DNA of 64,000 bases, taken from an uncultured Bacilli bacterium. GTDB taxonomy: Bacteria > Bacillota_I > Bacilli_A > RF39 > UBA660. Positions 4,883 through 40,466 of this stretch are shown piece after piece. The notes beneath the pieces are model-generated. The model ran no database searches and was not told where the DNA came from. It worked only from the letters and a program-made list of their open reading frames with translations. The translations under genes and the position numbers were made by a program. Within the stretch, counting starts at the first letter, position 1; every line of letters starts with the position of its first letter. Location: NCBI GenBank assembly GCA_947626275.1, contig CANQRL010000005.1, positions 18,992-82,991 of the forward strand. The letters run 5' to 3'.

Positions 4883-4959
4883 GTTCACGTAGCTCAGTTG
4901 GATAGAGTGTTGCCCTCCGAAGGCAAAGGTCGCGAGTTCGACTCTCGCCGTGGACACCA
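4883..4959 (+). tRNA. tRNA-Arg(CCG)
   Basis: Acceptor GTTCACG/CGTGGAC, anticodon arm TTGCC-CTCCGAA-GGCAA, TTCGA T-loop, A20, encoded CCA. Confidence 0.95.
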
Positions 4960-18322: not shown

Positions 18323-18784
18323 ATGGTAGATGTTGTTATTGAAGTACCATTAAATTCAAAATTATCTTATGATGTAGTAAATAATGTACCTTATGTAAAA
18401 GAAGTGAGATATTTTCCTCTTCCTTATCCGATAGAAAGAGGATACATTAGTAATACTATTTCAGAAGATGGAAGTCGATTAAGAGCACTTTTATTAAATT
18501 CTGAGGAGACCATTGCTGGAGGCGTTGTACCAGCACGTGTAATTGGATATCTAGAAATGACGATTGATGGTATACCTGAAAATATGGTATTTACGGTATC
18601 TGATATTAATCCAAAGTATAAAGGTATTGAGAATTTATCTGATGTTTCTCATTTTACTTTAAAAGAAATTACAGATTATTATTCAAACTATGGACGGATA
18701 CATGATAAAAAGGTAGAAATTTTTAGATATCACTCTAAAGACGAAGCTTTAGAATTGATTAAGCAATGGGAAGATAACATGTAA
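18323..18784 (+). CDS. Family I inorganic pyrophosphatase-like protein with degenerate active site
   Basis: Collinear with ppa (VPARVIGYLEM, LSD.S.FTL.EI), but DGDPLD is replaced by DGSRLR. Confidence 0.75.
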   Translation: MVDVVIEVPLNSKLSYDVVNNVPYVKEVRYFPLPYPIERGYISNTISEDGSRLRALLLNSEETIAGGVVPARVIGYLEMTIDGIPENMVFTVSDINPKYKGIENLSDVSHFTLKEITDYYSNYGRIHDKKVEIFRYHSKDEALELIKQWEDNM

Positions 18785-19271: not shown

Positions 19272-19757
19272 ATGGTAGATGCAATTATTGAGATACCAGT
19301 AGGTACTAGAAATAAATATGAGGTAGATAAAAAAAGAGGAGTGGTTAGACTAGATAGGGTATTATACTCAGCGATGACCTATCCAGCCGAATATGGGTAT
19401 ATTGGAGACACTTTAGCAGGAGATGGGGATCCTTTAGATATCCTAGTTATCAGTACTGAACCATCTTTTCCTGGTTGTGTAGTGCCAGCTAGGGTTATTG
19501 GCTATTTAGAGATGTATGATAACGGTAAGGAAGACTATAAAATTATTTCTGTAGTCGATGTTGATCCTCGATATAAGGAAGTAGAATCGTTAAGTGATTT
19601 ATCCAATTTTACACTACAAGAAATTCAAAACTTTTTTGAAAATTATAAAGTATTACAAGGAATTGATGTTACCGTAAAAGGATATCACGGAAAAGAAGAT
19701 GCTCTCGCAGTCATTGAGGAGAGTAAAAGAAACTACCAAGAAAAAAGCCAACACTAA
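19272..19757 (+). CDS. ppa: Inorganic pyrophosphatase (family I)
   Basis: NKYE, LDR, YG, DGDPLD, D-x4-DYK, FFENYK are all intact. Confidence 0.95.
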   Translation: MVDAIIEIPVGTRNKYEVDKKRGVVRLDRVLYSAMTYPAEYGYIGDTLAGDGDPLDILVISTEPSFPGCVVPARVIGYLEMYDNGKEDYKIISVVDVDPRYKEVESLSDLSNFTLQEIQNFFENYKVLQGIDVTVKGYHGKEDALAVIEESKRNYQEKSQH

Positions 19758-19765
19758 GTTGGTTT

Positions 19766-20776
19766 TTATTTGTATAAAAATTGGATACTGCCACCATTTT
19801 CCTGAAAAGAAAGAATTCCATATCCTCCGTTAATAATTGTCATTCTAGGAGGAATATGACCAAAATCCATATCATAGATGACAGGTACTCCTAAGTCCTT
19901 TAGACTATCTTCTAACGTTTCGTGAAAACTAATGTCATAGAAACTAGAATCCGTCGCACTTCTTCCTAACAGAATGGCTTTGGTATGACGGAACCATCCA
20001 CAAACCTTAAACTTCCAAAAAACACGGACTAAATCTTCGTTTGTTAGATCACAGTTATCAAAGAACCAAATAATCCCTTCGTCTTTGTATTTTTCAATAA
20101 AGTTAGCGGTATAGTCAAAAGGTGTACCAGCAAGTTCTGCTAGAAGGTCAATACATCCTCCGATAAATCTTCCTTCTATTGTTGCCTTTTTAGTACCTAA
20201 GCTTTTCCATTCTACTGGGGTATCTAAGTGATAACCCTCTAGTCCAGTAACCGTTTCTAATTCTTCTTTTTCATATTGCGAAAAGGAATTTTGAACAATT
20301 TCTTTTCCCTTTAAAATATCAATATTATCTTGAATAGAAGAATGCCATGGTTCCATTCCAAAGGCAGCTACGTTATGACTATAAATGGTCGCGATATCTA
20401 ATTTCGTCGTTATGACAAATAGGATTCCAGTAGGATCAGAATACCCTTGAATCCATTTCGGATGTTTTGCTATTTTCGAAAAATCGATGTAGGGAAGCGT
20501 TTCCAAAAGAAAATCTCCTCCAGCGGCGATGATGATGGCATCTATCTTTTCATCTTCTACTAGCTGATGAAATTCTTCGGCTCTTCTTTTCGCATGACTA
20601 CTTCTTCCTTTTTGACCCGTACGAACATTTTCTGTCTCTACTAAAGAAAATCCCACTTCTTCTAATTTTTTATGAGCATTATCTAATCTGTTTTGTTTAT
20701 AGGAATCGATAATTCCATCGGATAGAGCAGTTGTTCCAATGGTATTGGTTTCTTTTAAAAATTTTGGATATTTCAC
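19766..20776 (-). CDS. LD-carboxypeptidase, S66/MccF family
   Basis: GG, GYSDPT, GGC, DFGH..P. Confidence 0.9.
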   Translation of the reverse strand: MKYPKFLKETNTIGTTALSDGIIDSYKQNRLDNAHKKLEEVGFSLVETENVRTGQKGRSSHAKRRAEEFHQLVEDEKIDAIIIAAGGDFLLETLPYIDFSKIAKHPKWIQGYSDPTGILFVITTKLDIATIYSHNVAAFGMEPWHSSIQDNIDILKGKEIVQNSFSQYEKEELETVTGLEGYHLDTPVEWKSLGTKKATIEGRFIGGCIDLLAELAGTPFDYTANFIEKYKDEGIIWFFDNCDLTNEDLVRVFWKFKVCGWFRHTKAILLGRSATDSSFYDISFHETLEDSLKDLGVPVIYDMDFGHIPPRMTIINGGYGILSFQENGGSIQFLYK

Positions 20777-20803
20777 ATTCTCACCATGCTCATTATATCA
20801 CAC

Positions 20804-20928
20804 AAAAAGAAAAGGACAAAGTCCTTTTCAAGAGTAGTTAAGTGTTGTAGAATAAGTAAGGTTTATTTATCATTTATCTTTTCATAAATGATATAAGTGA
20901 TAAAGAGGAGTATACTTAATCACTTACA
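20804..20928 (-). ncRNA. Candidate small regulatory RNA with anti-SD loop
   Basis: TATAAT at 20934-20939, hairpin with TATACTCCT loop, second hairpin, terminator GAAAAGGAC-TTT-GTCCTTTTC-TTTTT. Confidence 0.6.
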
Positions 20929-20961
20929 CCTTCATTATATAGGTTAAATATAAAATATTTT

Positions 20962-20987
20962 TGTAAAAATTATTAAAAATTATTAAA
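20962..20987 (-). promoter_or_regulatory. Direct-repeat response-regulator box, copy 1
   Basis: TTTAATAATTTTTAATAATTTTTACA ending 22 nt upstream of TATAAT. Confidence 0.6.
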
Positions 20988-21230
20988 TTAGGCAACAGAA
21001 ATTTCATTGGCTAATCTTGAAATTTCTCTTACAGTTAAAACTTTTCCTTCACTTACTAATTGGTCGTTAATTAAAAGGCCAGGAATATTCTTAATTTGGT
21101 AAGCATCAATATCTTTTTTATCATCTAATACTTTTATATCAATATCAGCGAAATCGTCGGCAAACCGCGCTACCATCTTTTTAAGTTTTATACCATTGCT
21201 ACAATTAGAACCAATTATTTTTATAACCAT
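20988..21230 (-). CDS. Small thioredoxin-fold protein (MTH895-like) with CxxG motif
   Basis: IKIIGSNCSNG, IPGLLIND..V.EGKV; AGGTGA RBS before the ATG at 21230. Confidence 0.8.
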   Translation of the reverse strand: MVIKIIGSNCSNGIKLKKMVARFADDFADIDIKVLDDKKDIDAYQIKNIPGLLINDQLVSEGKVLTVREISRLANEISVA

Positions 21231-21312: not shown

Positions 21313-22578
21313 CTATTTGCGAATGGTAAAGATAACATCTAATCCTTTCTCTTTGTTGTTTCTAGCGTAGATATATCCTCCATGCGTTTCAACGATTTCC
21401 TTGCAAATGGAAAGTCCTAAACCCGATATTTTGCGTGATGGATCAGATGTGAATAATGGCTCAAAAATTTTATTTAAATCTTTTTCTGGTACCCCTTTTC
21501 CATTATCACTAATCGTAAATTCAAAATATTTGTCGATTTGTTTAACATGAATCACAATTTTTCCCTTTTTATCGAGAAAACGAACACTATTAGAGATAAT
21601 ATTACTAAACACTCTTTTTAGTTTTAAAATGTCTACTTCCATGATTTCGTCTTTGACTTCATTTTCAAAAACGAGCTTAATATTCTTTTCTCCTAATTCT
21701 TCTTTGTAGTCCTTACTTATTTGATTTAAAAATTCCCCAATTTCGATTTTTTCTCGTTTTAACGTGTCTTTGAGATTACAACTTAAGTAGTCATCAAATT
21801 CTTCTGTCAATTCTTTTAAGACGAGTGACTTATTATTAATCTTTTCGATGTAATCTTGCTTTTTCTCCTCGCTAATATTGGCTTTCAACAGTCTATCGGA
21901 ATATCCCATAATCGCCGTAAGAGGAGTTTTAATGTTATGAGAAATAGAAGCAATAATTCGATTCTGTTTTTCCTTTTCTTCTTCTAGGGCATCTACTAAG
22001 TCCACAAAGTTATTTTGAATGACATCGATTTCTGTCTTCCCATTTGTCCTACTCGGTTTAATTCCAAATTTGTAGTTTTTAATAGAACGTTGAACTTTTT
22101 CAATCGGAGAAATAATCCGTTGATTGGTCGATTCAAAAACAATTAAGATAATGATTAGGATAACAATAATCTCAAAGAGAATAAAGTTATTTAAAGCCGG
22201 AATATCGGCGGTATCGGTGTCTCGAAAAATCTTGACGAGATAGATCTGATTATCCCGTTGTAAGAAGGTCGTGACATAATAAATAGACTTATATTTCCAA
22301 ATATCAGGATTATTGTTAAAGATAACCTCCCCATTTGTATTTTCTAAGTAGATGGATAGATTTCTTTCTTTGGCAAATTGTTCAGAAGTTTGATACAAGT
22401 CTTTTTGACGATAGTTTTGAATTAACTCATCCATGTCCTTATTGAGTCTTTCATTATTATTTTCAATAGCGCTAGAAAGTTGTGGGATCAAGAAATAACG
22501 AAAGTATCCACCAATTAAGATAAAATTTAAAAAGAATACAAAAATGACGAGTAGGAGAGTGGCGTTTTTCATTTTCAT
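21313..22578 (-). CDS. HAMP-domain sensor histidine kinase
   Basis: Two TM helices, SHNIKTPLT H-box, NIISN, DNGKG, GLGLSI. Confidence 0.95.
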   Translation of the reverse strand: MKMKNATLLLVIFVFFLNFILIGGYFRYFLIPQLSSAIENNNERLNKDMDELIQNYRQKDLYQTSEQFAKERNLSIYLENTNGEVIFNNNPDIWKYKSIYYVTTFLQRDNQIYLVKIFRDTDTADIPALNNFILFEIIVILIIILIVFESTNQRIISPIEKVQRSIKNYKFGIKPSRTNGKTEIDVIQNNFVDLVDALEEEKEKQNRIIASISHNIKTPLTAIMGYSDRLLKANISEEKKQDYIEKINNKSLVLKELTEEFDDYLSCNLKDTLKREKIEIGEFLNQISKDYKEELGEKNIKLVFENEVKDEIMEVDILKLKRVFSNIISNSVRFLDKKGKIVIHVKQIDKYFEFTISDNGKGVPEKDLNKIFEPLFTSDPSRKISGLGLSICKEIVETHGGYIYARNNKEKGLDVIFTIRK

Positions 22579-22579
22579 G

Positions 22580-23257
22580 TTATTCGACCACCTTGATAAA
22601 TTTATAGCCTAATCCCCAAATCGTTTTAATATATTTTTCTTCAGGGTCTATTTTTTTTCGAATGCTTTTAATGTGAACAGCAACAGTTCCTATTTCTCCA
22701 TAATTACTTCCCCAAACGGCATCAAAAATTTGATCTTTGGATAAAGCAATACCCGCGTTGCTCATGAGGTAGGAGAGAAGTTCAAATTCTCTAGTTGAAA
22801 GTTCAACTCTCGTATCATTTTTAAAAACCTCAAAACTTTCTTTATTAATTTTAATTTCGCCAATACAAATGATATTTTTGTCGTTAGTACCAATTCTATT
22901 TTCTCTTCGAATGTGGGCTTTTACTCGCGCTACCAATTCTTCAATCGTAAATGGTTTCGTAATATAGTCGTCCGCCCCAATTTCAAATCCTAATAATTTA
23001 TCAAGCAACTGATTTTTCGCTGTGACAAAGATGATGGGACAAGAAACTTTATCGCGAATTTGATTGCATACTTCTGTTCCATTCATCTCTGGCATCATGA
23101 TATCTAAAATGATGAGATCAAAGGAATCTCGCAAAGCAATTTCGACAGCTTCTTTGCCATTACTCTTGATAACGGTTTCCATTCCTTCATCCGTTAAGAC
23201 ATCTGAGATGAGTTCGGCAATATCTTTTTCATCATCAACAATTAATATTTTTGGCAT
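22580..23257 (-). CDS. OmpR/PhoB-family response regulator
   Basis: IVDDE, LDIMMP, GADDYITKPF, winged helix with TIWGLGY. Confidence 0.95.
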   Translation of the reverse strand: MPKILIVDDEKDIAELISDVLTDEGMETVIKSNGKEAVEIALRDSFDLIILDIMMPEMNGTEVCNQIRDKVSCPIIFVTAKNQLLDKLLGFEIGADDYITKPFTIEELVARVKAHIRRENRIGTNDKNIICIGEIKINKESFEVFKNDTRVELSTREFELLSYLMSNAGIALSKDQIFDAVWGSNYGEIGTVAVHIKSIRKKIDPEEKYIKTIWGLGYKFIKVVE

Positions 23258-38657: not shown

Positions 38658-38734
38658 TGGTGGAGGATAAGGGATTCGAACCCTTGACCCCCTGCGTGCA
38701 GGGCAGGTGCTCTAGCCAGCTGAGCTAATCCCCC
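38658..38734 (-). tRNA. tRNA-Ala(TGC)
   Basis: GGGGGAT/ATCCTCC acceptor with G3:U70, TGC anticodon, TTCGAA, CCA. Position 33 is C. Confidence 0.93.
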
Positions 38735-40392: not shown

Positions 40393-40466
40393 AGGGGTGT
40401 AGTTAAATGGTATAATAACGGTCTCCAAAACCGCTGTTGGGAGTTCGATTCTCTCCACCCCTGCCA
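40393..40466 (+). tRNA. tRNA-Trp(CCA)
   Basis: AGGGGTG/CACCCCT acceptor, CTCCAAA loop, G73, CCA. A27-C43 mismatch. Confidence 0.95.

Follow-up and report, generated by a model that had tools for sequence, protein, structure and literature searches.

RsaE/RoxS of Staphylococcus and Bacillus is a small regulatory RNA (sRNA) under the control of the ResDE/SrrAB systems. It is conserved across Bacillales, carries C-rich motifs and targets Shine-Dalgarno (SD) regions. The sRNAs of the enterobacterial DapZ/MicL type lie inside the 3′ untranslated region (3′UTR) of a gene and have their own internal promoter. The csRNAs of Streptococcus are described in PMC3091779 as intergenic RNAs of 51-202 nucleotides (nt) with an intrinsic terminator, two hairpins and an unpaired stretch complementary to the SD sequence (anti-SD) and the start codon (anti-AUG). 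There are two to six such genes, and the CiaR repeat NTTAAG-N5-TTTAAG, the final G of which is reported as essential, lies 10 nt upstream of their -10 box (PMC3091779). The LhrC1-5 sRNAs of Listeria monocytogenes are LisRK-dependent and multicopy, and contain redundant UCCC motifs (PMC4132741). For uncultured gut Bacilli with small genomes, hardly any regulatory RNAs have been mapped. The element considered here is a predicted sRNA on the minus strand of a 64,000-nt stretch of DNA (the window; contig CANQRL010000005.1, positions 18,992 to 82,991) from an uncultured Bacilli bacterium. The genome carrying the window, G000, is a draft of 1.4 Mb with 34% G+C. The element is best explained as a stand-alone sRNA gene within a four-part module, the other members of which are a response regulator, a histidine kinase and a thioredoxin-like gene.

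The intergenic minus-strand span 20939-20800 opens with a TATAAT box; two hairpins, a pyrimidine-rich single-stranded stretch and an intrinsic terminator follow in that order. All of these elements had been listed in a preliminary description of the locus, and each lies where it was placed there. Lengths of helices are given in base pairs (bp).

20934..20939, minus strand: -10 box TATAAT of the sRNA promoter; the third repeat of the upstream box lies 22 nt upstream, and the hexamer reads TATAAT or TAAAAT across the species alignment
20800..20932, minus strand: predicted sRNA of about 125-130 nt, with a probable 5′ end about 7 nt past the -10 box and a probable 3′ end within the U tract
20890..20930, minus strand: stem-loop 1, a 12-bp stem with an inner 3-bp helix and the loop UAUACUCCU
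20869..20892, minus strand: stem-loop 2, ATCATTTAT (20892-20884) with ATAAATGAT (20877-20869); sequence and length vary among species
20830..20861, minus strand: pyrimidine-rich core CCUUACUUAUUCUACAACACUUAACUACUCUU, unpaired in most single-sequence folds
20800..20829, minus strand: intrinsic terminator and U tract, with a 9-bp stem and a 3-nt loop; the pairs are nearly invariant

The strands of stem 1 are GGTGTAAGTGAT (20930-20919) and ATCACTTATATC (20901-20890), and the inner AAG/CUU pairs lead to the apical loop TATACTCCT (20914-20906). The motif CUCCU within this loop is the exact complement of the SD sequence AGGAG. The C/U/A-rich unpaired stretch as a whole spans approximately 20868-20830, and is followed by the terminator sequence GAAAAGGAC-TTT-GTCCTTTTC at 20829-20809 and then TTTTT. 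The 133-nt RNA has a folding energy of -31.7 kcal/mol (z = -4.9), and none of 200 dinucleotide shuffles was equally stable. It is presumably expressed as a discrete transcript.

A comparison of the window with Rfam 15 at the gathering threshold returned nothing except one SAM riboswitch (RF00162, 32271-32364, minus strand, 74.7 bits) and three transfer RNAs (tRNAs; 4883-4956, 38661-38734 and 40393-40463). When the search of 20600-21200 was relaxed to E = 10, only chance-level matches were obtained (E of at least 2.6, at most 17 bits). The sRNA is called a new family because no Rfam model matches it, and its standing as a previously uncatalogued family, a new RNA of a known functional kind, is well supported.

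The distribution of the sRNA was followed in 20 species-level genomes of the genus and in 398 genomes that represent 213 other genera of the family. Full-length or partial homologues are present in 11 of the 20 genus genomes, as a single copy in each. Nine of them were recovered by the covariance model, with one copy per genome, and the two others are core-only variants. There are no paralogues within these genomes; a 23-nt match on contig C10 falls in a coding region. A 27-nt core pattern, with up to three mismatches allowed, has no match in any of the 398 genomes of other genera. Scans of genome and metagenome collections with a 19-nt core retrieved the ten other known genus members and no new ones; such scans may omit the record of the window itself. 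The same scans gave ten extra matches, in four genome records of unrelated phyla and six metagenome contigs. These were rejected as true homologues, being chance-like; the covariance model matched one of them, weakly (L108, 25.6 bits, E = 0.004).

The same layout recurs in the single-sequence folds of nine species, in which a long hairpin at the 5′ end displays N-UACUCCU-C and is followed by a second, variable hairpin, the unpaired stretch and the terminator. In the covariance-model alignment of the nine species, 96.2% of the cells are paired, compared with 42-52% when the partners are slid by one to three columns. Changes on both sides of a pair were found at five pairs (12 cells), all in hairpin 1, in which 95% of the cells are paired. 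The covariation score was reached by none of 500 shuffles, a result which must be weighed against the fact that the alignment had been fitted to the structure. RNAalifold on a plain MAFFT alignment recovered the terminator alone, as the insertions and deletions in stem 1 were misaligned, and the covariance-model alignment was used instead. A covariance model built from relatives had been suggested as a check in the preliminary description; that the element is more than a chance pattern is shown by homologues in 11 species, by compensatory changes in stem 1 and by the 30-nt core described below.

The two single-stranded elements are strongly conserved, the unpaired core most strikingly. In loop 1, UACUCCUCUU (20912-20903) is invariant in 9 of the 11 species. 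The first 30 nt of the core, CCUUACUUAUUCUACAACACUUAACUACUC, are also identical in 9 of 11, and the 19-mer contained in them is identical in all 11. The adjoining thioredoxin-like gene has a mean DNA identity of 78.5%, falling to 65% at third codon positions, and the FtsQ/DivIB proteins of five sRNA-bearing species are 50-57% identical to the G000 protein. As the invariance of the core contrasts with the divergence of both, the core is under strong purifying selection for a function at the RNA or DNA level. Identity over 30 nt in 9 of 11 species is an unusual degree of invariance for an sRNA, and is probably explained by a partner worth finding.

This pattern also bears on the proposal that a very small peptide is encoded and that the RNA structure is incidental. 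A single open reading frame (ORF) can be read inside the G000 RNA, ATGATAAAT...ACTTAA. It comprises 11 codons and a stop, rather than the 13 codons first reported. The ORF has no SD sequence, its frame is apparently closed or shifted in the other species checked (from an alignment read by eye), and the core is invariant at every base with no third-position pattern. There appears to be no conserved coding frame, and the peptide is extremely improbable.

The link to the two-component system comes from a direct repeat which occurs in three promoters of the locus.

20962..20987, minus strand: triple direct repeat TTTAAT-AATT-TTTAAT-AATT-TTTACA with a 10-bp period, the putative response-regulator box of the sRNA promoter, directly after the thioredoxin-like stop codon
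21256..21309, minus strand: promoter of the thioredoxin-like gene, TTTAAT-N4-TTTAAT-N4-TTTACA-N22-TATAAT, beginning 4 nt past the kinase stop codon
23328..23381, minus strand: promoter of the two-component operon, TTTAAT-N4-TTTAAT-N4-TTTATA-N22-AATAAT, with putative autoregulation

The pattern TTTAAT-N4-TTTAAT-N4-TTTA has three sites in the whole 1.4-Mb genome, all on the minus strand of this locus (23381, 21309 and 20987). They precede the regulator gene, the thioredoxin-like gene and the sRNA, respectively, each on the coding strand. The distance from the third repeat to the -10 hexamer is 22 nt at all three, which gives the generalised form NTTAAT-N4-TTTAAT-N4-TTTAYA-N22-(-10). Control patterns with N3, N5 or N6 spacers, or with the pattern reversed, do not occur in the genome. 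The regulator box that had been noticed upstream of the sRNA is thus confirmed as a three-fold repeat with a 10-bp period, which is shared with two other promoters of the locus and found nowhere else in the genome.

The box in front of the regulator gene is kept in all nine species with an adjoining two-component system. Box and spacing in front of the thioredoxin-like gene are kept in all ten species that have the gene, if the first half-site is read as NTTAAT. In G002 the regulator gene is on another contig (79% identity), yet the thioredoxin-like and sRNA boxes are retained. All 11 sRNA-bearing genus genomes encode an orthologue of the regulator (79-93% identity), and none of the nine that lack the sRNA does. 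Two-component control of the sRNA is strongly suggested by these observations, and the protein which binds the box is inferred to be the OmpR-family regulator.

Several points weigh on the other side. The sRNA's own box is clear, at the identical offset of -55, in 6 of the 11 species; G017, G016, G007 and G015 have a degenerate version, and G001 has none. The co-occurrence of sRNA and regulator is phylogenetically confounded, and one gain or loss of a single locus might be enough to produce it. The earlier claim of two-component control therefore stands as regards the shared repeat with its N22 spacing and the 11/11 and 9/9 co-occurrence, and is qualified as regards the presumed binder and the box of the sRNA itself.

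A further gene was considered as a member of the regulon. This is an 851-amino acid (aa) ABC_tran-FtsX fusion (G000:C3:94222-96877, locus L080) upstream of which lie a terminator, a TTTAATAATTTTTAAT box of two repeats and an extended -10 box. It was set aside, as the box is missing in five other genomes and two-repeat matches occur at chance frequency; the box is probably coincidental.

The genes which surround the sRNA are as follows, with assignments from Pfam and NCBIfam.

22580..23257, minus strand: OmpR-family response regulator, 225 aa, Response_reg and Trans_reg_C
21313..22578, minus strand: sensor histidine kinase, 421 aa, HisKA and HATPase_c
20988..21230, minus strand: Thioredoxin_3/MTH895-like gene, 80 aa, without a CxxC motif; the sRNA lies within its 3′UTR
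20776-19766, minus strand: S66 LD-carboxypeptidase gene
20792..20819, minus strand: LD-carboxypeptidase promoter TTGTCC-16-TATAAT with TG, separate from that of the sRNA and overlapping the sRNA terminator; the extended -10 is conserved in the alignment

Among NCBIfam models, those that match the regulator best are of a generic YycF/VanR type, and none reaches its cut-off. The kinase is VanS/WalK-like; together with the adjoining LD-carboxypeptidase, this makes cell-wall antibiotics and antimicrobial peptides the first candidates for the signal that it may sense. The thioredoxin-like gene ends with a stop codon at 20990-20988. The sRNA follows this gene in 10 of the 11 species, and is itself followed by the LD-carboxypeptidase gene in 8 of 11. 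In G001, which has no thioredoxin-like gene, an intact sRNA follows the kinase gene and a separate terminator. In G012 and G002, which have no LD-carboxypeptidase gene, the sRNA is also intact and the next gene encodes a pyrophosphatase. Because the sRNA survives the loss of either neighbouring gene, it is a unit of its own, and to describe it only as a leader for the gene downstream or only as a tail of the gene upstream would be incomplete. The suggestion of a new sRNA is upheld by this persistence in G001, G012 and G002, together with the lack of an Rfam family and its make-up as a conserved, structured unit that has a -10 box of its own and ends in a terminator.

It has to be asked whether the element could be a cis-acting 3′UTR and terminator of the regulator-kinase-thioredoxin transcript, for example a stabilising one, with neither a function in trans nor a promoter of its own. 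Terminator prediction gave nothing between the thioredoxin-like gene and the sRNA, and the terminator of the sRNA is the only one downstream of the regulator, kinase and thioredoxin-like genes; therefore the sRNA would also form the 3′ end of their transcripts. The position after the thioredoxin-like gene in 10 of 11 species, and a box which is weak for the sRNA in 5 of 11 species and kept for the thioredoxin-like gene in 10 of 10, point the same way. However, a stabilising 3′ end would leave the 30-nt invariant unpaired stretch unexplained, G001 combines the absence of the thioredoxin-like gene with a separate terminator before an intact sRNA, and six species conserve the regulator box together with a -10 box whose spacing to hairpin 1 is constant. 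A purely cis-acting role is accordingly thought unlikely. The preliminary description had allowed that the signal might be only the 3′UTR of the thioredoxin-like gene; this is right in that no terminator separates the two and the RNA is also a transcript 3′ end, and wrong in that G001 keeps the sRNA without the gene.

A cis-regulatory leader, either an attenuator or a riboswitch governing read-through into the LD-carboxypeptidase gene, would account for the finding that this gene lies downstream in the same orientation in 8 of 11 species, and leaders are usually laid out in this way, with a structured RNA ahead of a terminator. This is largely refuted by synteny, as G012 and G002 keep the sRNA without the carboxypeptidase gene. 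In addition, the carboxypeptidase gene is served by a separate promoter with a conserved extended -10, which overlaps the terminator; an alternative antiterminator pairing was not seen, and this region matched none of the riboswitch families of Rfam. The leader is very unlikely.

Some features of the neighbouring genes may be recorded separately. The thioredoxin-like protein has GSNCSNG in place of the CxxC motif, and the G010 orthologue has no cysteine there at all; a role as a classical disulfide oxidoreductase is unlikely. The promoter box of this gene is the best conserved of the three, despite the missing CxxC. Two paralogues of inorganic pyrophosphatase are encoded about 500 nt apart on the plus strand of the window, at 18323-18784 and 19272-19757; one of the two scores far lower than the other (83 compared with 185 bits).

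The mechanism which is favoured, with somewhat better than even confidence, is trans-acting anti-SD base pairing under two-component control. The phosphorylated OmpR-family regulator would bind the three-fold direct repeats, centred near -57, -47 and -37. Once bound, it would switch on three nested promoters, which serve its own operon, the thioredoxin-like gene and the sRNA. There would be two sources of the sRNA, a transcript from its dedicated promoter and the 3′ ends of the longer transcripts, all of which would stop at the sRNA terminator. The CUCCU loop and the unpaired core would then pair in trans with the purine-rich ribosome-binding regions of messenger RNAs (mRNAs), and this pairing would block the initiation of translation.

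The logic of such pairing was followed in 1431 crudely called translation-initiation regions of G000. AGGAG is the commonest SD sequence, with 393 occurrences in the upstream windows of the 1431 predicted genes of this crude set. The 3′ end of the 16S ribosomal RNA (rRNA) in one genus member is canonical, GGATCACCTCCTTTCTA. Core helices with a score of at least 9 number 68 in translation-initiation regions and 21 in coding controls, a ratio of approximately three.

Several results count against anti-SD pairing. The enrichment itself would be expected of any pyrimidine-rich sequence at ribosome-binding regions. Target prediction had been put forward as a check, and it did not deliver: by duplex energy and by helix length in G000, no predicted mRNA target beats the shuffled controls, and the candidates are indistinguishable from them. 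Across the 20 genomes, sites complementary to the core, with wobble allowed, are no commoner than those of a reversed-pattern control. The loop CUCCU is kept in 9 of 11 species; G016 and G007 lack the CUCC of the loop yet have the core and the 5′ hairpin. Since it is lost in these two, CUCCU cannot be the sole working part. The 30-nt invariant stretch exceeds typical sRNA seeds, and a different partner may be involved. Of the earlier anti-SD claim, the loop in nine species stands; its loss in G016 and G007 and targets not above shuffled controls leave the pairing as a proposal.

Two candidate targets were followed in more species, and neither was accepted. The best duplex, at -30.6 kcal/mol, covers the SD sequence, AUG and first codons of a pilin gene (G000:C2:57989-58465), the sixth of six in tandem. 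Its energy was matched by 1 of 22 shuffled cores, and the complementarity is confined to the closest relatives, with -27.6 in G012 and -24.3 in G001, and a weak -17.8 in G002. Such a pilin leader was not found in G004, G010, G013, G016 or G017. The array itself (G000:C2:57989-61454; L032, 7990-11454, minus strand) consists of six tandem paralogues, which encode proteins of about 150-158 aa bearing M..KGFTLIE, the N-terminal methylation motif of prepilins. Each gene has a promoter-like leader, that of the sixth being distinct, and similar arrays are present in G012, G001, G002 and G017. The array looks like a pilin-variation cassette.

The longest helix, 15 bp with two G-U pairs, is at the ribosome-binding site of divIB/ftsQ and is identical in all six genomes checked. 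Here UUACUUAUUCUACAA pairs with UUGUAGAAUAGGUGA, over a site that takes in the upstream ORF's stop codon as well as the ribosome-binding site; the match falls wholly within the 19 nt that are invariant in 11 of 11 species. The helix score was reached by 113 of 500 shuffled cores. The site is intact in G005, G019 and G011, which lack the sRNA; its conservation there is explained by its overlap with the end of the upstream ORF. In G000 (G000:C1:7560-7600) and its orthologues (L083-L087), a 24-nt stretch runs from the end of the upstream ORF (..EQEFVE, TAG) through the divIB ribosome-binding site. It is identical at all bases in six species, the DivIB proteins of which are 50-57% identical.

Other leads were also discarded. 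A recurring genus-wide hit falls within T-box leaders, recognised by eye from conserved T-box sequence, and was treated as coincidence. In the T-box-like leaders G010:C7:5200-5600, G013:C3:233190-233590 and G016:C7:26900-27300 (L101-L103), a 12-nt complement of the core lies just 5′ of the T-box sequence. Feedback on the neighbouring genes is not supported, as the start regions of the regulator, kinase, thioredoxin-like and carboxypeptidase genes rank 72nd or worse of 1429. In other species, the leader of the regulator gene takes places between 20th and 1246th.

The same results bear on an alternative in which the RNA is a scaffold, a sponge or a protein-binding RNA, the invariant 30-nt strand, with or without the loop, binding a conserved protein or macromolecule instead of acting as an mRNA seed. 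Identity of these 30 nt in 9 of 11 species with diverged proteomes is more than a seed usually requires, a statistically supported mRNA target was not found, and the loops of hairpin 2 carry GGA or GGGA in most species. However, no candidate partner was found, and pairing of the core with rRNA and with tRNA is at chance level (464 of 500 and 281 of 300 shuffles as good, respectively). The composition and the CUCCU loop also suit anti-SD pairing, and long invariant stretches are possible in multi-target sRNAs as well. On balance the chances of this alternative are low.

A bolder suggestion is that the core is a dedicated platform for a long duplex or for protein binding, by means of which a two-component system of the envelope type would directly restrain a core process of the cell surface or cell division. 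Its probability is rated lower still. If it were true, with divIB/ftsQ as the lead, a sensor kinase would control septum assembly post-transcriptionally via one sRNA in a reduced-genome, Spo0A-encoding gut lineage. The Spo0A orthologue (Response_reg and Spo0A_C) of the 1.4-Mb genome is at G000:C9:20900-21664 (L077).

One further observation in G000 concerns adjoining paralogous TIR_2-domain proteins of 697 and 620 aa, one with SH3_3 (G000:C4:3986-7954, L074). Their start regions are near-identical, with the N-terminal motif M..KCKMCGG, and the two may be a defence-type pair.

Under the favoured anti-SD reading, the sRNA can be set beside the systems described at the outset. It resembles RsaE/RoxS as a conserved Firmicute sRNA with two-component control and unpaired pyrimidine-rich motifs directed at SD regions, the control and the targeting being presumed here. 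It differs in having no CCCC or UCCC motifs and no Rfam match, and in its restriction to one genus. With the DapZ/MicL type it shares a terminator in common with an upstream coding gene, so that the RNA could arise from its own promoter or from the longer mRNA. In contrast to that type, the promoter lies after the stop codon rather than within the coding sequence, and one and the same box precedes both the upstream gene and the sRNA.

The likeness to the csRNAs is the closest in design. Both are small intergenic genes with an intrinsic terminator, and approximately 130 nt falls within the csRNA size range. Both have a direct hexamer repeat for an OmpR-family regulator of a cell-envelope-type sensor system; the half-site NTTAAT resembles the NTTAAG of CiaR, and activation by the regulator is presumed here. 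Two stem-loops and an unpaired stretch are also seen in both; complementarity of that stretch to translation-initiation regions, typical of csRNAs, is putative here. The differences begin with the box, in which three TTTAAT-N4 copies, the last 22 nt from the -10, stand in place of the two CiaR copies with N5 at 10 nt, and a T is found in place of the G reported as essential for CiaR. The recognition helix is TVAVHIKSIRKKI, compared with the CiaR helix VVEVYVSKVRKKL that is conserved in streptococci; 5 of 13 residues are identical in an alignment made by eye. There is one copy per genome, the anti-SD CUCCU is in the loop of hairpin 1 and not between the hairpins, and the pyrimidine-rich core (ACUCUU, CCUUAC) lacks the anti-AUG CAU triplet. 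There is no sequence similarity, and the host belongs to an uncultured Bacilli genus, not to Streptococcus.

The LhrC sRNAs are strictly tied to a cell-envelope-stress two-component system and have a regulator-responsive promoter element upstream of approximately -53; both features are presumed for the present sRNA as well. Unlike them, the present sRNA is single-copy and has no sequence relation to LhrC; UCCC is absent from the 133-nt RNA, which has CUCCU and the 30-nt invariant stretch instead.

Membership in the csRNA or LhrC family fails, because the repeat, the recognition helix, the UCCC and CAU motifs and the Rfam matches all differ or are lacking. The sRNA is therefore a new family of a known kind. 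Its locus offers a compact, fully specified circuit which can be tested outside the native host, comprising a kinase, a regulator, a three-repeat operator with three sites in the genome, and an sRNA in which two single-stranded elements are under strong constraint. If the favoured reading is right, the design of csRNAs and LhrC, in which an envelope-type two-component system drives an anti-SD sRNA, would extend to an unrelated RNA and regulator family, which suggests that this design arose repeatedly.

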